Below are positions 4,959-32,783 of a stretch of DNA of 64,000 nucleotides, piece after piece. Made by a program: the position numbers and the translations under genes. The notes under the pieces are model-generated. The model was not told the DNA's origin and searched no databases. It was given only the letters and a program-made list of their open reading frames with translations. This stretch comes from Pseudomonadota bacterium. Lineage in GTDB: Bacteria; Myxococcota_A; UBA796; GCA-2862545. Position 1 is the stretch's first letter. The number at the start of each line of letters is the position of its first letter. The stretch spans positions 8,553-72,552 of the forward strand of contig JAGSGY010000015.1 in the NCBI GenBank assembly GCA_023954855.1. Reading direction: 5' to 3'.

Positions 4959-5942
4959 ATGAGTGCGAAACCTGCCATTCGCGTGGCTGTGACCGGCGCG
5001 GCCGGCAACATCGGCTACTCCCTTCTCTGGCGCATTGCGAGCGGCAACTGCTTCGGCGCTGACCAGCCAGTCATCCTGCAGCTGCTCGAGATCCCGCCCG
5101 GCATGGACCGCCTCAACGGCGTCTGCATGGAGCTCACCGACTCCGCGTTCCCGCTGGTGCACGGCATTGTCGCCACCTCCGACGCCAACGTCGCCTTCGA
5201 TGGCGTCAACCAAGCCTTCCTCGTCGGCTCGCGCCCGCGCGGCCCGGGCATGGACCGCAGCGATCTCGTTGCGGCCAACGGCCCGATCTTCGTCGGCCAG
5301 GGCAAGGCCCTCAACGACAACGCCGCTGATGACGTGCGCGTGATCGTGGTCGGAAACCCCTGCAACACCAACGCGCTCATCGCGAACGCGAACGCTCCGG
5401 ACATTCCGGACGATCGCTTCACCGCCATGACCCGCCTGGACCACAACCGGGCCATGGGACAGCTCGCCGCCAAGGCCGGCCGCCCCGTCGCCGACGTCGA
5501 AGGCGTCATTGTCTGGGGCAACCACTCCCCGACCATGTACCCCGACGTGTCCAAGGCCACCGTGCAGGGCAAGTCCGTCGTCGACACCTTCGACGCTGAC
5601 TGGCTCGGCAGCGAGTTCCACAAGACCGTCTCCACCCGCGGAAAGGCGATCATCAACGCGCGCGGCGCCTCTTCGGCCGCTTCGGCTGCCAACGCCGCCC
5701 TCGATCACATGCGTGACTGGTGGACCGGCACGAACGGCAAGCCCGTCTCGATGGCCCTGCCCAGCAAGGGCTGGTACGGAATCCCCGAGGGCCTCATGTT
5801 CTCGGTTCCGACCATCTGTGAGGCCGATGGCTCGCTGACCGTCGTCGAGGATTGGGAGCTCTCCGATCACGCCAAGGCGAAGATCGCAGCCAGCGCCGAC
5901 GAGCTCCTCAAGGAGCGGGCCGCGGTCGCCGAGCTTCTCTAG
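4959..5942 (+). CDS. mdh: Malate dehydrogenase (NAD-dependent, LDH-like MDH family)
   Basis: [29 protein letters not shown] Rossmann motif, conserved MDH core ([15 protein letters not shown]), 327 aa. Confidence 0.95.
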
Positions 5943-21237: not shown

Positions 21238-22787
21238 ATGATCGTCTCCTGCCCCTCGTGCGAGGAGCGCTACAAGTTCAGCGAGGAGAAACTCGGCAAA
21301 CGAGGGGCCAAGATTACTTGCCCTAAGTGCCGGCATGTCTTCGTCGTTTATAAGGACCGGGAAACCGAGAGTCTCGGGCGAAAGTCGGCGGATGGCACCA
21401 TCACCGCAGACGAGCGTGCGACGGCCCAGCCCGCGCCTCCACGCAATCCGTGGCCTCGTGACTTTCCGACGTGGAGTTTTCGGGAGCTCGGTGCCACGTG
21501 GCGGGTGCGCAAGCTCCAAGGCATGACCTACGAGTTCTACTCGCTCGAGGAGCTCAACGGCTTCCTTGAGGAGCGGCAGGTCAGTCGGTCCGATCAGATC
21601 TCGATCGATGGGCGTGACTGGCATGCCATCGAGGACTTCTCGAACTTGACGGCCTACTTCTACGACACGTGGAAGCGCGTCGAGTCGGGCGAGATTCAGC
21701 TCGACGACGAAGAAGACGAAGAGGACGAGGCCGACGCGCCGACGACGATTATGGGTGCGGCGAGCAGCCTCGCTGACGAGATTCGTCGTGCGGTGCAAGA
21801 CGCGCGCACTCCAGCTCCGTCCCCAAGCCGTGTGTCGGCGACTCCAGCGAGCGCGACACCGCGAACGTCCTCTCCACGTGAGACCTCGCCGGATCAAACG
21901 GGCGATCACGCAGGATTCGTCACGCCCCCGCCGGCGCAGCCGAGCTGGGGCGGTCCGATGGATGAGCCCGAGCCGACCTCCAAGGCGCGAAGCTGGTCGC
22001 CGCCTCCACGTGAGCCGTCTCCTGCCCCGGCGCCCGCCGCGCCGGTGGTTCCACCCAGGCCCGAGCGCGCTCCCACGACAGGTGGGCCCTCGAGCTTTGG
22101 GAACGCCAAGCGTGGCTACGGGTCGAATGTGCCGCTGCCGGACGCCTCGGCGCCGATCAGCGCCCCCCCACCGGGCATCCATGACCCATTCACGGCCATG
22201 GCTCAGGATGGGCCACCTGCCCCGGCTTTCTCGGAGACCGTCGCACCCGAACCGCCGCCCAAGAAAGAGGCGCGGGCCTCCGGTGGTGGTGGCGGTCTTG
22301 TCGGCATGGCAATGGGGCTCTTGGTCTTGCTTGTGCTGGCGATCGCCGGTGGCGTTGCTGGGCTCAAGCTCGGTGTGATTCCCGCCGATGTCGTACCCGT
22401 GGACTTGCCAGCGGTGTTGCTGCCGACCGATGCCGCCGAGGCGGGCCCCGAGGGCCAGGCCGCTCCTGAAGGCGACGAGGGCACGGAGGCGGCGCCCGAG
22501 ACGGAAGAGGCCCCGGCATTCGCCCAGCCGGTTCCGGTCAAGCCCGCTCCCGTCAAGCCGGCGCCTGCTCCGGTGCCATTCGCCGTTCCGAAGCCAAAGC
22601 CCGTTGAGGCACCAAAGCCCGAGGCCAAGCCCGCCCCGGCGCCGTTTGTGGTGCCAGCGAAGCCCGCGCCCGTCGCCGAGCCGGAGCCCGAAGAACGGCC
22701 CGCGTTTGTCGTTCCGCCCAAGCCTGCACCTGCCCCAGAGCCGGAGCCCTCGGGCGTGATTGAATTGCCGCAGCCGGAGGAGGCCCC

Positions 22788-22791
<4 letters not shown>
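21238..22791 (+). CDS. MJ0042-type zinc-ribbon / GYF-like (DUF4339) / Pro-rich / TM protein
   Basis: [14 protein letters not shown]...[12 protein letters not shown] zinc ribbon. [50 protein letters not shown]-like. One TM helix ([16 protein letters not shown]). Pro/Lys/Ala low-complexity tail. Confidence 0.8.
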
Positions 22792-24353
<1,562 letters not shown>

Positions 24354-26187: not shown

Positions 26188-28026
26188 ATGGCTCAGGGCC
26201 TTGTGGTCGGTACGTCTGGCCACATCGATCACGGGAAGACCTCGTTGGTGCGCGCGCTCACGGGCGTGGACCTCGATGCCCTCCCCGAAGAGCAGGAGCG
26301 AGGCATCACGATCGCGCTCGGCTTCACGCCGCTCGATCTCGATGACGGCCGACGGGTGGCCTTTGTCGACGTTCCCGGGCACGAGCGCTTGGTGCGGACC
26401 ATGGTCGCCGGGGCCGCGGGCGTCGATGCCGTGTTGCTCTGCATCTCAGCGGTCGATGGCACGATGCCTCAGACCCGCGAACACCTCGCGATTCTCGACC
26501 TGCTTGGGGTGACGCAAGGGGCCGTGGTCCTGACGATGGCCGACCTCGTCGACGACGAGCTGCTCGAGATGGCGGCAGAAGACGCCGAGATGCTGGTCGA
26601 GGGCACGTTCCTCGAGGGGGCGCCAGTGGTGCCGTTCTCGTCGGTGACCGGTCGTGGCAAGCCCGAGTTGCTCGAGGTGATTGCCACGTTCGCGCAGACC
26701 GACCGCAGTCCAACCGGTCCGTTCCGACTGCCGGTCGATCGCGCGTTCGTACGGCCTGGCTTTGGCACCGTGGTGACGGGCACGGCATGGTCTGGACGTG
26801 TCTCCGATGGCCAGACGCTGCGCTTGTTGCCCTCCGAGGCGTCGGTTCGCATTCGCGGTGTGCAAGTGCATGGCGAGTCGGTGTCGGAAGCGATTGGCGG
26901 CCAGCGCGTGGCGCTAAACCTGGCAGGGGTCGAGAAGCAGGACGTTCCGCGTGGCACCTTGGTGGTCGGCGGCGACGTGGCCGTGAGCTCGATGCTCGAC
27001 GTGCGCTACACGCACCTTCCCGGGGCTCCCGAACTCGACGATGGGGCGCAGGTCCGCGTGTTGCTCGGCACCTCGGAGCGCATCGGCCGGCTTCACATCG
27101 CTGCCAACAACGACCATCTGGTTCCCGGGCGCACCACAGCGGCGCAGCTCCGCTTGGACAAGCCACTGGCCTGCTTGCCCGGGGATCGGTTTGTGATCCG
27201 CCGCGCGAGTCCGGTGACCACCCTTGGTGGAGGCGTCGTGGTCGACCCTTGGGCGCCGCGTATGCGTCACAAGACGCGGGTGGCGCACGGTGAGGCCATG
27301 AACCGCCTTGCCGATGGCGATGCGGTGGTGTGGCTCGAGCGCGCCGGGGAGGGCGGCCTGTCGCTGGCCGAGTGGTCGCTTCGAGCGGGTGACACCTTGG
27401 CGCCGGTCCTCGGTGAGCGCGTGCTCGCTCCACGGGTTCTCGGACGACTCGAAGGTGCGTTGCTCCAGGCCCTCACCGCCTACCATGCCGAGCTTCCGCT
27501 CTCGCTGGGCGCGCATCGCCGGGAGCTGCGACGCGGGCGGCTGGCCCACGTGGACGAGAAGATCTTCGATGGGCTCGTGGACCGCCTGTCTGACGGGCAC
27601 TTGATCGACGTGCATGGACCGCTGGTTCGTCTCGCCAGTTTCCATGTGGAGCCCACGCCGGAGCAGGTGGTGATCAAGGACAGAGTCGCGGCCTCGTTGG
27701 CGGCCGCAGGCTTTGCCGGTATCGCCCCGAAGGTGCTTCACGAGACCCACTCCGAGCCCGAGGTCGAGGCGCTTGCCAGGCTGCTCGAGGCCGAGGGCGT
27801 CGCGGTGCTTGTTCCGCAAGTGGGCTGGGTCGATGCATCGGTGCTCGAGGGGCTTCGCGTGTCATTGCGAGAGCACTTCGAGGGCGCCGAGTTCCTCACG
27901 CCCGCAGACTTCAAGGCGATGACCTCGTTGTCGCGAAAGACCGCGATTCCGCTGTTGGAGTGGCTCGACAGGTCGAAGTGGACCTCGCGGCGTGGCGAGG
28001 GACGCGTCGTCGGCGCTCAGCTCTAG
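26188..28026 (+). CDS. selB: Selenocysteine-specific translation elongation factor SelB
   Basis: GTSGHIDHGKTSLVRALTG (G1), RGITIALGF, DVPGHERLV (G3), ~613 aa with C-terminal winged-helix region. [11 protein letters not shown] before ATG 26188. Track start 26137 is an upstream extension. Confidence 0.9.
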   Translation: MAQGLVVGTSGHIDHGKTSLVRALTGVDLDALPEEQERGITIALGFTPLDLDDGRRVAFVDVPGHERLVRTMVAGAAGVDAVLLCISAVDGTMPQTREHLAILDLLGVTQGAVVLTMADLVDDELLEMAAEDAEMLVEGTFLEGAPVVPFSSVTGRGKPELLEVIATFAQTDRSPTGPFRLPVDRAFVRPGFGTVVTGTAWSGRVSDGQTLRLLPSEASVRIRGVQVHGESVSEAIGGQRVALNLAGVEKQDVPRGTLVVGGDVAVSSMLDVRYTHLPGAPELDDGAQVRVLLGTSERIGRLHIAANNDHLVPGRTTAAQLRLDKPLACLPGDRFVIRRASPVTTLGGGVVVDPWAPRMRHKTRVAHGEAMNRLADGDAVVWLERAGEGGLSLAEWSLRAGDTLAPVLGERVLAPRVLGRLEGALLQALTAYHAELPLSLGAHRRELRRGRLAHVDEKIFDGLVDRLSDGHLIDVHGPLVRLASFHVEPTPEQVVIKDRVAASLAAAGFAGIAPKVLHETHSEPEVEALARLLEAEGVAVLVPQVGWVDASVLEGLRVSLREHFEGAEFLTPADFKAMTSLSRKTAIPLLEWLDRSKWTSRRGEGRVVGAQL

Positions 28027-28400
28027 CCGACCCACTCGCGCACGTCGGTGCGAATCAACAGGCCGATGATCACCAGCGAGAGGGGGCTGCAGCACGGGTT
28101 GAGGACCAGGTGCACACCGGCGATGGCAAGGCTGATCAGCCAGGCCCAAGGACGTCGCGTCGCGAGTCCCCAAACACAGAGCAGGCCGCTTGCCGCGAGC
28201 ACAGCGCCTCCGAGAAAGGGCACGAGGCCTGCCGCTGGAACCATGTACGCAGGGGGTGCGGACGGAATGTTCTGCAGCACCGTCTGGATCCAGGCGTAGT
28301 AGGCACCCGCCGAGGCGCCCATCACCACGTCGAAGACCGCCTGACCGAGCAGCATGTACTGGATTGCGAGAACCGCGGTCGGCCGAGTCGCTTCGTCCAC
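28023..28400 (-). CDS. Small integral membrane protein, hypothetical
   Basis: 125 aa with 3-4 predicted TM helices. Stop codon overlaps selB stop (CTAG). Confidence 0.45.
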
Positions 28401-28498
28401 CTCTTCTCCCGTGGGCTCTGCGCATGGCTATCCCTCGCGTTCGCGGCATGCCAAGCAGGTCGCTGCGGGATAGGTCTCGCCGTCACGAGAGGAGACCG

Positions 28499-30253
28499 AT
28501 GCTCACCGAACGCACCCACACCGCCGGCGAACTGCGGCGCGAACACGCAGGAACCACCGTTGTCCTTCAGGGCTGGGCTGCGCGCGTGCGAGATCGCGGC
28601 GGCGTCACCTTCATCGTGCTGCGCGATCGGTACGGCAAGGTCCAGGTGACCGTCGATGAGCGCTGCTCCGAGGCCATTCGCGAGGTCGCGAAGTCGGTCC
28701 GCCAAGAGTACGTCGTTCAGGTCTCCGGCGAGGTGGTCGAGCGTTACCGCGAGAACAACGACATGGCGACTGGCGCCATCGAGATCGTTCCGACCGCACT
28801 CGAGGTGCTCTCCGGCACTCGTCCGCTTCCGTTCGCGCTCGACGAGCACATGGACGCCCACGAAGAGACCCGTCTTCGTTACCGCTTCCTCGATCTTCGT
28901 CGTCCCCAGCTGCAGCGGAACATGATCTTGCGTCACAAGGCGGCCCTCGCCGTGCGCCGTGCGCTCGATTCGCAGGACTTCCTCGAGATCGAGACGCCGA
29001 TGCTCACCAAGGCCACGCCCGAAGGCGCGCGCGACTACGTCGTGCCCAGCCGCGTGCATCCCGGCCACTGGTACGCGCTTCCGCAGTCGCCGCAGATCTT
29101 CAAGCAGATCTTGATGGTGGCCGGCATGGACCGCTACTTCCAGATCGTGCGCTGCTTCCGCGACGAGGACCTGCGTGCCGACCGTCAGCCCGAGTTCACG
29201 CAGATCGACATCGAGATGTCGTTCGCGACGCAGGACATGGTGCTCACCGCCGCCGAGAAGGTGGTGCGGGCGATGTGGGCAGAGGCCGGTCACGAGATCG
29301 CCGAGATCCCGCGGCTGACCTTCGCCGAAGCCATGGACCGCTTCGGTGTCGACAACCCCGACATGCGCTTCGGCATGGAGCTGTGCACGATCACTTCCGA
29401 GCTCGGCGACAGCAGCTTCCCGCCGATCGCCAACGCCATCGCCGACGGCGGCATCGTCAAGGGCTTCGTGCTCAAGGGCGGCGCCGAGGGCAACTCACGC
29501 AAGGTGCTCGATGGCTGGACGGCGTTTGTGCGCGGCTACGGTCTCGGCGGCCTGCTCTGGGGCAAGGTCACCGCCGATGGTGCGACCGGACCGCTCGGCA
29601 AGGTCGTTCCCGACGCGCCCGGCATGCTCGCAGCGATGGGTGCCGAGCCCGGCGACCTCGTGCTGGTCGGAGCTGGCGAAGAGGACCTCGTCAACACCGG
29701 CATCGGCCGACTTCGCGTCAAGGTGGCCAAGGACAAGGAGCTCATCGAGCCCGGCCTCTTCACCTTCTGCTGGGTGGTCGACTTCCCGCTGTTCGAGAAG
29801 GACGGAGACGGCGGCTGGACCCCGATGCACCACCCCTTCACCTCGCCCAAGCCGCAGCACCTCGGCCATCTCGAGGACGGCAACCTCGGCGCCATCCTCT
29901 CGGATGCCTACGACCTCGTCTGCAACGGCAGCGAGCTCGGTGGCGGCTCGATTCGTATCCACCGCGAGGATGTGCAGCAGCAGATCTTCCGCGCGCTGGG
30001 CATTGACGAGCAAGAGCAGCGCGAGAAGTTCGGCTTCCTGCTCGACGCACTCGCACACGGTGCTCCGCCGCACGGTGGACTGGCCTTCGGACTCGACCGC
30101 TGCGTCATGCTTCTCGCCGAGGCCGACTCGCTGCGCGACGTCATCGCCTTCCCGAAGACGACGAGCGCTCAGGACGTGATGTGTGGCGCGCCCTCCAAGG
30201 TCGACAACGCCGAGCTCGATGAGCTTCACGTGAAGAACCTGGACCGCGGATGA
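28499..30253 (+). CDS. aspS: Aspartate--tRNA ligase
   Basis: [50 protein letters not shown] (OB-fold anticodon-binding), class II motifs ([40 protein letters not shown]). GAGGAG SD upstream of ATG 28499. Confidence 0.95.
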
Positions 30254-30825
30254 CGGTCTACTCGAAGCGCCTGGACGAAGCGGTTGCACTCGCGGTGCGC
30301 GAGTTTCGGCCGGTCGTGCGCAAGGGCACCACGGTGCCCTACATCACCCACCTGTTTGGCGTGATGGCGCTCGTCGGCGAGTTCGGGGGCGACGAAGACC
30401 AGCTGATTGCGGCCGTGCTCCACGACTTCCTCGAGGACATCGAGTCCTCGTCCGAAGAAGCGATGCGCGCCCAGTTTGGCGACCGGGTGACGCGCATGGT
30501 CGTGCAGTGCACCGACACGACTCAGATCCCGAAGCCACCGTGGCGGCATCGCAAACAGAAGCACCTGGCGAAGGTGCTCGGCCTGCCCGACGACACCCGT
30601 CTCGTGATGTGCGCGGACAAGCTCCACAACTGCACCACCCTCGTGCGCGATGTGCGGCATGAGGGCGTAGCGACGCTCGAACGCTTCACGGGCAAGCGGG
30701 AAGGCACGCTCTGGTACTACCGCGAGATGGCGGTGGCCCTGGGCATGGGCTGGCGCCACCCGATCCTCGATGTGTTCGAGCGGACGGTCTCGGATCTCGA
30801 AGAGGCGGCCGGGGTATTGCGATGA
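30250..30825 (+). CDS. HD-domain protein, Mesh1/SpoT-like small alarmone ((p)ppGpp) hydrolase family
   Basis: [13 protein letters not shown]...[12 protein letters not shown] (H...HD metal site) and [12 protein letters not shown] (cf. Mesh1 KLADKLYNLRDL). ATG overlaps aspS stop (ATGA). Confidence 0.75.
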
Positions 30826-31010
30826 GCACGGTTCGACTGGTCGATGCCGGACCCGACAAGGTCGCGGTGATCAAGGTTGTCTGCAAGGCGACGAAGAGCA
30901 CGCTTCAGCAGGCTTTCGATGCCGTGCAGTCAGTGCCTACGGAGCTCACGCTCGACGAAGAGAGTGTCGAGGCACTGCGCGAGCTCGGGGCCGTGCTCGA
31001 GGCGCTGTAG
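30822..31010 (+). CDS. Stand-alone ribosomal protein L7/L12 C-terminal-domain-like miniprotein (62 aa)
   Basis: [62 protein letters not shown] aligns with the L7/L12 CTD ([37 protein letters not shown]...EALKKALEEAGA), including the KVAVIK signature. ATGA overlap with the HD gene. Confidence 0.55.
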   Translation: MSTVRLVDAGPDKVAVIKVVCKATKSTLQQAFDAVQSVPTELTLDEESVEALRELGAVLEAL

Positions 31011-31328
31011 CTAGCTGCACTCCGCGGGGCCGCCGACCACAATGGTGACCTGTGGCGCGTCGTCGAGCGACAGCGTGATGGTGGTGGCGAGCGTGAAGGG
31101 AATTCCGCTGAAGACGGTCTTCCAGACGTCGTGTACCGTGTCGGCCGAGGCCGGTCCGGACAGGTCGAACTCGAAGTCGGAGACAGGTGGGTCGCCGATC
31201 ATCGTGCCACCACCGACGGGGTCGACGTCCATGCCGAGCTGGTCGCTGAGTGCCTCGCCCAGCATGTCTTCGACGTAGCCGCGGTCCATCGGCGACAAGC
31301 CGGGCGTGATGGTGCAGCTGAGCTTCAT
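31011..31328 (-). CDS. Hypothetical small protein co-transcribed with SPFH gene
   Basis: 105-aa ORF whose start overlaps the SPFH gene stop (4 nt). Its stop abuts the L12-like gene stop (TAG|CTA). Confidence 0.45.
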   Translation of the reverse strand: MKLSCTITPGLSPMDRGYVEDMLGEALSDQLGMDVDPVGGGTMIGDPPVSDFEFDLSGPASADTVHDVWKTVFSGIPFTLATTITLSLDDAPQVTIVVGGPAECS

Positions 31329-32677
31329 GACGCGGGCGGGGGCGGGGGTCCGCCGCTACCCGGGGGTGGGGGAGGACCGGCAGACAGCGCGGCCGCGACC
31401 TCGGGAACGTCCTTTGCGGGCTTCCACCCGTCAAAGCCTTCGGCCCACAGGTGGTGTGTGCCGTCAGGGGAGGCCTTGAGAATGGCGATGACCTCGTCGA
31501 GGCTCTTCTCGCCGGGTCCGGCGTCGCCGTGGTAGTGAAAACTCAAGGTTGCGGCGGCTGGAGGCACTTTTCCGGCGATGGCTGGCACCTCGGTCCACGG
31601 CTTCCAGCCCGCCCAGCCGGCCTGCCAGATCAAGTGCTTGCCGGTGCGGTTCTTGGCGACTTCCGAGGCGATGGCGTCGGCGGTGAGCTGCTGCTGACTG
31701 CCGCCGAAGGAGTAGTGGAAGGTCTCGGCACCAGGCACCGGCGGGGGAACGGCCGCTCCGCCGCCGGCCATGCCCGTGTGGGGGTTGAAGTGGGCGCCGC
31801 CCTGGCCCATGCCGGCCATCTGGTTGCCCATCATGTTGCCCATGCCAAAGCCCACACCCATGCCGATGCCCGCGCCGCCAATGCCGGTGTTTGCGGCCGC
31901 GGTGCCAATGGCGTCGGCGGCCTGCAGCTTGGCGTAGGCGTCGAGATTGCCGAGCACGCCCATCTTGGTGCGCGCGTCGAGGGCCTTCTCGACCTCTTCG
32001 GGCAGGCTGATGTTCTCGATGGTGAAGTCGGAAATCGTGATGCCGTAGGCTTCTTGCACGGCGGGATTCATGCGGTCCCGCATCGCGTCGCCGAGGTCCA
32101 TGTAGTTGGCGGCGAGGTCGAGGACGGGGATGCGGGCTTGGCCGATGGTGTCGACCAAGGCCGAGACGAGCTTGCGCTTGAGCTGACCGGTGATTTCGTC
32201 GCGGGTGAACAGCCCGTCGGTGCCGACGATCTGGCGGATAAACTCGGCGGGATCGGTGACGCGGAACGAGTAGATGCCGAAGGCGCGCACGCGGACGGGG
32301 CCGAACTCCGCGTCACGCATCATGAACGGGTTCGCCGTGCCCCAGCGGTTCTCGGTGAACTGGCGGGTGTTCACGAAGAGGATGTCGCCCTTGTAGGGGT
32401 AGGACAGGCCGTACTTGATCGTCTGAAAGAACGAGGTGATCGGCGTGTTGCGCGTGTCGAGGGTGTAGGTGCCGGGACCGAACACGTCGGAGAGCTGGCC
32501 CTCCGAGACGAAGACCGCAGCCTGACCCTCGCGAACGATGAGCTTGGACTGGTCGGTGATCGCCTTGTCGAAGACGGGAAAGCGGTAGACGACGGTGTCG
32601 GAAGAGTCGTCGGTCCAGTCGATGACGTCGAGGAACTGAGCCTTCGCGTGCGAGGTCAGCGTGTCCCAGATTCCCAT
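31325..32677 (-). CDS. SPFH/band-7 family protein (COG4260-like) with two C-terminal GYF-like DUF4339 domains
   Basis: Start MGIWDTLTSHAKAQFLDVIDWTDDSSDTVVYRFP... is the conserved COG4260 N-terminus. Gly/Met-rich linker. Two repeats of HYxxG...LIWQAGWAGWKPWTEVP / HLWAEGFDGWKPAKDVP (DUF4339). Pro-rich tail. Confidence 0.85.
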   Translation of the reverse strand: MGIWDTLTSHAKAQFLDVIDWTDDSSDTVVYRFPVFDKAITDQSKLIVREGQAAVFVSEGQLSDVFGPGTYTLDTRNTPITSFFQTIKYGLSYPYKGDILFVNTRQFTENRWGTANPFMMRDAEFGPVRVRAFGIYSFRVTDPAEFIRQIVGTDGLFTRDEITGQLKRKLVSALVDTIGQARIPVLDLAANYMDLGDAMRDRMNPAVQEAYGITISDFTIENISLPEEVEKALDARTKMGVLGNLDAYAKLQAADAIGTAAANTGIGGAGIGMGVGFGMGNMMGNQMAGMGQGGAHFNPHTGMAGGGAAVPPPVPGAETFHYSFGGSQQQLTADAIASEVAKNRTGKHLIWQAGWAGWKPWTEVPAIAGKVPPAAATLSFHYHGDAGPGEKSLDEVIAILKASPDGTHHLWAEGFDGWKPAKDVPEVAAALSAGPPPPPGSGGPPPPPAS

Positions 32678-32783
32678 GTGTTCGCCTCCGTCTCCGGTGA
32701 GCATCGCAGACGCTCGCAGCCGGATCCAGCAAGGACGTATCCACGGTTCGCCGGACGGGAAGGATCGATCCGAGGCTTGGGCC

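Follow-up and report, generated by a model that had tools for sequence, protein, structure and literature searches.

What does a single head domain of the ribosomal stalk protein bL12 (L7/L12) do when it is encoded away from the ribosomal protein genes? The question is raised by a 64,000-nucleotide stretch of DNA from a Pseudomonadota bacterium (contig JAGSGY010000015.1 of assembly GCA_023954855.1; the whole stretch is called the window below). The gene concerned (30822..31010, plus strand) has an ATG start and a TAG stop and encodes 62 amino acids. It lies on an 89.7-kb contig and its product is deposited as MCO4744769.1 with the label 'MAG: ribosomal protein L7/L12 [Proteobacteria bacterium]', so the similarity has already been caught by automatic annotation; as a name for this protein the label is misleading. 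We give about an even chance to the overall reading that the open reading frame (ORF) is a genuine, recently inserted gene for a free C-terminal domain (CTD), which forms an overlap-coupled string with the gene of a small alarmone hydrolase (SAH) and whose product serves as an accessory module.

Coding evidence for the ORF

The first-pass annotation of the window, made from the letters alone, had pointed to an ORF with the KVAVIK...P...GA pattern of the L7/L12 CTD. This ORF is present exactly at 30822..31010, carries the pattern, and is the only L12-like one among the 1,044 six-frame ORFs of the window. Its start codon shares the four bases ATGA (30822..30825, plus strand) with the stop codon of the SAH gene, an arrangement commonly associated with translational coupling, and its stop codon directly abuts that of the convergent downstream gene (TAG|CTA), with zero intergenic bases. 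The GC content by codon position (0.71/0.38/0.79) is similar to that of aspS (0.71/0.43/0.86) and of other neighbours, the third-position value (GC3) of 0.79 being slightly below the 0.86-0.89 of the neighbours.

An orthologue (P0002) of 62 amino acids with 80% identity is encoded on two short ENA metagenome contigs (L001 and L002), which, like the window, have the SAH C-terminus followed by the ATGA junction. The two versions of the gene differ at 33 nucleotides, distributed 10/5/18 over the codon positions. In this single pairwise comparison of 62 codons the Nei-Gojobori ratio of non-synonymous to synonymous substitution rates (dN/dS) is 0.24 (dS 0.51, dN 0.12), and the synonymous excess is significant (Fisher p = 2.4e-4); the adjacent 38 SAH codons, used for comparison, give 0.14. 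Judged by its sequence, 30822..31010 looks like a genuine gene under selective constraint.

GC-rich DNA yields many spurious ORFs, and 64 ORFs of at least 30 amino acids overlap the surrounding 6 kb, which might favour a chance ORF with an accidental likeness to L12 and no gene at all. This explanation is effectively refuted, and its remaining probability is negligible: the protein scores above the Pfam gathering threshold, the GC pattern is of the coding type, substitutions relative to the conserved orthologue fall mostly on third positions, and the fold is predicted confidently.

Domain identity and predicted fold

The 62-residue protein matches the Pfam model of the L12 CTD (PF00542, Ribosomal_L12) with 29.9 bits (gathering cut-off 25.9, E 7e-7), and P0002 matches it with 30.5 bits. 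When all PDB sequences were searched with phmmer, E. coli L7/L12 CTD chains came first (2bcw, 3j9y and 1ctf; E ~4e-4).

Two AlphaFold2 models were compared with known structures. With an alignment of the two orthologues only, the predicted local distance difference test score (pLDDT) was 71.7, and Foldseek placed E. coli L7/L12 CTD structures at the top (template modelling score, TM, 0.67-0.70). The deeper alignment, termed A4, consisted of 49 domain sequences cut from the matches of the exhaustive search described below and gave a pLDDT of 93.6 and a predicted TM of 0.74. The best PDB matches of this model were 1rqs (TM 0.85), 4v5m_BL (0.83), 1rqu (0.80) and 1ctf (0.79), at about 40% identity. 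Its predicted elements (strand 2-8, helices 13-24 and 28-36, strand 40-44, helix 46-54, strand 58-61) follow the β-α-α-β-α-β topology of the L12 CTD. Relative to E. coli, the third helix (helix 6) is shortened by six residues, a form that is also seen in several non-ribosomal repeats. The proposed homology to the L7/L12 CTD is thus borne out by the Pfam match as well as by the predicted structure, and the comparison with 1CTF suggested in the first-pass annotation yields a fold of that type. We describe the product as a single domain with a predicted L12-CTD fold.

Two other assignments were considered. ClpS, the N-degron adaptor, is a known fold neighbour of the L12 CTD, and the Foldseek lists contain it with a distantly similar α/β arrangement (TM ~0.5, 11-21% identity, probability <0.5). 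However, no Pfam ClpS match was obtained at E<=1, and the protein is not a ClpS family member by sequence. Nor is it a multi-repeat protein of the kind discussed below, as it consists of a single 62-residue domain with one matched stretch.

Absence of an N-terminal domain

Strand 1 of the CTD stands at the very start of the protein. The model of full-length bL12 (the equivalog TIGR00855) scored 20.1 bits (cut-off 84.4) and was matched only over profile positions 61-103, and the protein has neither the N-terminal domain (NTD; PF16320) nor the hinge of bL12. Its surroundings are not those of a bL12 gene either: aspS and the SAH gene lie upstream and a pair of genes for a 105-residue and an SPFH protein downstream, instead of rplJ-rplL. 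The NTD of bL12 is responsible for dimerisation and for attachment to the uL10 helix. A protein without NTD or hinge therefore cannot be a canonical stalk subunit, and the earlier statement that it lacks both, and hence cannot assemble on the stalk in the usual way, stands on the partial TIGR00855 match, the missing PF16320 domain and known bL12 biology.

A hidden NTD or a frameshift fusion with the SAH was considered and rejected. The in-frame open stretch upstream (30663-30821) comprises 53 codons without ATG, GTG or TTG, and its translation showed no match to PF16320 (Ribosomal_L12_N) at E<=10. SAH homologues, moreover, stop at the same residues without such a domain.

Factor-binding residues

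To compare residues, 214 related L12-CTD domains were aligned together with the E. coli CTD; positions are given in E. coli numbering. The motif KVAVIK in helix 4 (codons 13-18, 30858..30875, plus strand) corresponds to K65-K70 of E. coli bL12 and is fully retained, as are the equivalents of G62, L80, P91, G114 and A115. The following segment (codons 21-36, 30882..30929, plus strand), made up of C21 and a remodelled helix 5 with the sequence STLQQAFDAVQ, is different from the family. R73 (R or K in 93% of the domains) is replaced by C, G79 (G in 84%) by T, K81 (K in 61%) by Q, E82 (E or D in 88%) by Q, K84 (K in 88%) by F, L86 (L in 80%) by A and E88 (E or D in 95%) by Q. Each of the substituted residues is found in 0-4% of the 214 domains at its column, and at the columns of R73, K81, E82 and K84 the majority residues reach 61-88%. 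The segment is identical in the orthologue P0002, in which the whole STLQQAFDAVQS stretch is unchanged.

K65, K70, K81 and K84 are highly conserved in bL12, and K65 and K70 are involved in EF-Tu binding (PMC10602876). Of the factor-binding positions singled out in the first-pass annotation, K65, V66, I69 and K70 are unchanged, R73 has given way to a cysteine, and the helix-5 positions K81, E82, K84 and E88 now read Q, Q, F and Q. The alignment thus indicates that only half of the canonical factor-binding face has been retained, its charged helix-5 part having apparently become a conserved neutral and aromatic surface. The combination of a conserved helix-5 replacement with an intact helix 4 is more suggestive of an altered or further protein partner than of mere decay.

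These residues bear directly on the main idea of the first-pass annotation, in which the free, soluble protein would compete for translational GTPases or modulate them. It would act independently of the SAH, bind EF-Tu, EF-G, IF2, RF3 or SelB via helix 4 and so damp or tune their recruitment to the stalk. The retained equivalents of K65, V66, I69 and K70 are in line with it, the predicted fold is that of the factor-binding domain, and other non-ribosomal L12-CTD paralogues are found in translation contexts (downstream of rpsT, and in one case beside lepA). However, R73, K81, E82 and K84, all conserved in the family, are lost, and the gene is absent from close relatives that have the same translation apparatus. 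A single contact between a CTD and a factor is weak, whereas each ribosome offers 4-8 copies on tethers; a free copy would therefore have to be very abundant. Because half of the canonical interface is lost and single contacts are weak compared with tethered copies, the protein is probably no effective bulk competitor of the stalk, and we regard this explanation as unlikely.

The upstream alarmone hydrolase and a possible function

The gene upstream of the L12-CTD gene (30250..30825, plus strand; MCO4744768.1) encodes a 191-residue SAH-like protein of the HD_4 type (PF13328, 66.9 bits). It shows partial matches to RelA/SpoT models (TIGR00691), with the hydrolase domain only and no synthetase domain. 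The best match among PDB sequences is 7qoe ('HDc domain-containing protein', E 1.9e-34), followed by 7qoc ('Guanosine polyphosphate pyrophosphohydrolases/synthetases', E 1.4e-24). As its HD...ED and ADKLHN motifs align with those of 7qoe and 7qoc, we consider the protein an SAH homologue: by sequence, it appears to be a stand-alone HD domain with the HD/ED metal-binding motifs. The earlier suggestion of a link to RelA/SpoT-type enzymes has therefore found a concrete counterpart, the overlap-coupled upstream neighbour of the L12-CTD gene being an SAH gene.

The string begins with aspS, the gene of aspartyl-tRNA synthetase (28502..30253, plus strand; Pfam tRNA-synt_2, GAD and tRNA_anti-codon; the start at 28502 was inferred from homologues), which is preceded by selB. 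The stop codon of aspS and the start codon of the SAH gene again overlap in ATGA (30250-30253, plus strand), so that aspS, the SAH gene and the L12-CTD gene form one overlap-coupled string. The aspS-SAH overlap was seen in every clade member examined (L012, 4001-4004; L032, 116-119; L033, 815-818; L034, 5001-5004), while the more distant SAH loci (L003-L031) did not show this conserved aspS-SAH operon. Around the operon, a promoter scan revealed no sigma-70-like sites, and terminator-like sites were found on the opposite strand only, inside genes.

The ATGA overlap suggests that the L12-CTD protein is co-translated with the SAH. We tentatively propose, as our preferred reading, that the two are made together and that the 62-residue protein acts as a small protein-binding accessory module; for this mechanism, taken alone, our confidence is low. 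The lysine/hydrophobic face of helix 4 (KVAVIK), with which bL12 contacts the G domains of translational GTPases, is kept, and the charged helix-5 face has been exchanged for conserved Q, Q, F and Q, together with the cysteine in place of R73. A changed or second partner would be the simplest explanation. A candidate for this partner would be the SAH itself, or else the protein could form a bridge from the SAH to (p)ppGpp-binding translational GTPases.

In a more specific version, the free L12 head would be devoted to the co-translated SAH and would deliver alarmone hydrolysis directly to the translation machinery, the helix-4 face docking on (p)ppGpp-loaded translational GTPases or on the stalk base and the remodelled helix-5 face holding the hydrolase. 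We consider this improbable; in the literature found, targeting to the translation machinery by an L12 head is not described for any SAH. If binding to translational GTPases or to the SAH were true, the protein would be a minimal natural tool for studying the cellular role of a free L12 head domain, and would provide an initial clue to the action of the many uncharacterised non-ribosomal L12-CTD proteins.

Another explanation would place the gene pair in a conflict system, either toxin-antitoxin or defence, with the CTD as a decoy or sensor; SAHs are able to neutralise toxic alarmone synthetases (PMC7229694). TIR_2 fusions among the related proteins (2 of 77) and a paralogue beside a BrxC/BrxD-like ATPase and a helicase also fit such a role. 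However, a Pfam scan of ~18.9-34.7 kb detected no small alarmone synthetase or defence-like domain (the PADLOC library was not run), and the flanking genes are of the housekeeping type (selB, aspS, SPFH, radical SAM, uvrD-like). In addition, the SAH gene is overlap-coupled to aspS across the clade, and tblastn searches of phages and plasmids gave no match to the 62-residue protein. A role in conflict therefore finds little support in this context and appears very improbable to us.

Distribution and origin

A search with the SAH protein provided 29 genome loci with identities of 38-76%, to which three metagenome contigs (L032-L034) were added afterwards. The neighbourhoods differ at the site of the L12-CTD gene. 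On L001 and L002, where the SAH is 89% identical (as a C-terminal fragment), the SAH and L12-CTD genes are followed directly by the SPFH gene, and the 105-residue gene is a short remnant. This remnant (L001, ~325-345) is a deletion product of ~20 nucleotides that keeps the last codons (GPAEC*) in both contigs. In L012 (SAH 76% identical) the aspS-SAH pair is followed by genes for a zinc-ribbon and a methyltransferase-like protein and a fragment duplicating the C-terminus of the SAH, and then by the 105-residue/SPFH pair. In L032 (68%), aspS-SAH faces a 102-residue/SPFH pair without any insertion, and the stop codons overlap. In L034 (60%), selB...aspS-SAH is followed by other genes. The L12-CTD gene is absent from 26 further fetched loci that have an SAH homologue and from L012, L032 and L034, the three closest relatives with aspS-SAH synteny, and no PF00542 gene is among the called genes of L032-L034. 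Conservation in sister genomes, on which the first-pass annotation had made its reading depend, therefore holds for the orthologue on L001/L002 and fails in these three.

By parsimony over the junctions, the gene was gained in the recent common ancestor of the organisms of the window and of L001/L002, and evidently at a rearrangement-prone junction between the SAH gene and the 105-residue/SPFH pair. As a separate observation, the site corresponding to the L12-CTD gene in L012 (4604-6098) includes an ORF fragment (5236-5466, ending in ...AAVLR) that duplicates the SAH C-terminus, which points to a hot spot for insertions and to recombination involving a second SAH locus.

Further homologues of the 62-residue protein are rare. 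The word-index search of 5.8 billion clustered proteins yielded 2 homologues, the exhaustive HMMER search (1.84 billion representatives) yielded no additional stand-alone orthologue, and a scan of JGI metagenome contigs gave no match to the L12-CTD gene. An exact-sequence contig look-up for P0001 had nothing on record. A general linkage of SAH and L12-CTD was considered and rejected, since there were no fusions among SAH homologues and the matches at the loci were confined to the two orthologue contigs (numbers below).

The very narrow distribution would fit a young, nearly neutral gene, a domain-sized piece of rplL or of a multi-repeat paralogue that came to lie in a recombination-prone convergent junction. 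It would be expressed by read-through from the SAH gene and have no specific role. The different insertions at the same junction in L012, the deletion of the 105-residue gene in L001/L002 and the lower GC3 of the gene (0.79 vs 0.86-0.89) point in the same direction. Given the narrow distribution and the unstable junction, this is a serious rival. However, dN/dS is ~0.24 with a significant synonymous excess, the domain is cleanly trimmed with conserved start and stop, and both lineages have exactly the same unusual residues in helix 5, which argues for constraint over decay. On the whole we consider a neutral origin without function rather unlikely.

The reading of an SAH-coupled accessory module, for its part, has to be weighed against several points. 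The pairing of SAH and L12-CTD genes is seen in two closely related lineages only: a domain hidden Markov model run over 31 loci (the 29 genome loci plus L001/L002) found an L12-CTD ORF in L001/L002 only, and none of the best 120 SAH homologues (0/120) has a PF00542 fusion. The junction of L012 holds two unrelated genes, and the adjacency of SAH and L12-CTD may therefore reflect an insertion hot spot and not a function. The selection estimate is suggestive, as it comes from 62 codons and one pair of sequences, though all indicators agree. Finally, the A4 alignment consists of members of the L12-CTD family, which biases the high-confidence model towards that fold; the two-sequence model is an independent check on this bias and gave the same top matches. 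The confinement to two closely related uncultured lineages also limits the general importance of the gene.

Relation to known L12-domain proteins

An exhaustive HMMER search of the 1.84 billion representatives (E<=1e-3) found 77 related proteins, P0003-P0078 among them. PF00542 is present in 75 of these, usually as 2-7 tandem repeats, and the bL12 N-domain in only 2. The search favours multi-repeat proteins, whose scores add up, and the scarcity of single-domain matches is therefore no measure of their true frequency. A few of the 77 proteins are fused to TIR_2, LRV, TPR or DnaJ domains. The first-pass annotation had called the gene an orphan; this description has to be abandoned, as L12-CTD domains outside bL12 are common and phage examples have been published (PMC6375957).

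Among the paralogues whose context was inspected, two lie directly downstream of rpsT, one of them beside lepA and holA and followed by a second PF00542 gene, another PF00542 pair is arranged in tandem, and one adjoins genes for a BrxC/BrxD-like ATPase and a DEAD helicase. Paralogue loci are L035 (6001-6822), L036 (931-1374), L037 (160-1115) and L038 (6001-6495). Bacterial multi-repeat L12-CTD proteins without the bL12 N-domain are widespread and apparently unstudied; a literature search for bacterial non-ribosomal L12-CTD paralogues found no study, the phage paper being the only hit (PMC6375957). L12 head domains thus seem to be reused outside the ribosome more widely than the literature found describes.

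With the CTD of bL12 (1CTF, 1RQS; PF00542) the protein shares the fold, about 40% identity, the identical KVAVIK motif and G62, L80, P91, G114 and A115. It differs in lacking the NTD and hinge, in its location outside rplJ-rplL, in the replacement of R73, G79, K81, E82, K84 and E88, and in the shorter helix 6.

Outside its own lineage, the multi-repeat paralogues come closest to the protein in sequence, and many of their repeats have the shortened helix 6. Repeat 2 of the two-repeat protein P0042 from Solirubrobacter phytolaccae (WP_270026127.1) is the closest single domain outside the lineage (44% identical) and has in common with the 62-residue protein the rare cysteine at the R73 position and the residues 'TL' at G79-L80. 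Unlike the 62-residue protein with its single domain, however, these paralogues have 2-7 repeats, almost always keep the canonical helix-5 motif and occur in other contexts.

Phage proteins with a bL12 domain, which sometimes makes up the whole protein, reportedly retain the residues in contact with uL11, EF-G and EF-Tu (Mizuno et al. 2019, PMC6375957). Stand-alone viral examples in BFVD, such as A0A8S5VTZ4 (71 amino acids) and a protein of Ralstonia phage RSJ5 (92 amino acids), reach a TM of up to 0.84 to our model. They resemble the protein described here in that an L12 CTD occurs outside a ribosomal protein and sometimes forms nearly the entire chain, but they are viral, whereas the 62-residue protein is encoded chromosomally in a housekeeping operon and has a remodelled helix 5. 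An L12 head domain outside bL12 is therefore already known; the protein described here adds a cellular member that consists of a single domain and has an unusual helix 5.

Other features of the window

The convergent gene downstream (31011..31328, minus strand) encodes a 105-residue protein without a Pfam or NCBIfam match, has homologues in L012 and L032, and marks the downstream edge of the insertion site of the L12-CTD gene. It is overlap-coupled to the gene of the SPFH/Band-7 protein (31325..32704, minus strand; Pfam Band_7_1, 280 bits), which is a conserved anchor of synteny. This protein has two C-terminal GYF_2-like repeats and a proline-rich tail. One of the multi-repeat L12-CTD proteins, P0005, starts with a sequence that resembles GYF_2 (HYLWRAGWADWRSW), as judged by eye only.

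The wider context is of the housekeeping type and includes a uvrD-like helicase, zinc-ribbon proteins, YbjN and a radical SAM protein. Searches of the window for rRNA, tRNA and Rfam features gave no match. Between selB and aspS, on the opposite strand, lies a hydrophobic ORF of 125 amino acids (28023-28400, minus strand) with coding-type GC3, and a homologue is found at the same place in L012 (1790-2266). A long extension of aspS with a TTG start (28190-28501, plus strand) is probably untranslated. Further upstream (21238-24350, plus strand), two adjacent genes encode proteins of 517 and 521 amino acids, each with an N-terminal Zn_ribbon_4 (MJ0042-type) domain; the second of them also contains a proline-rich acidic repeat and TPRs.

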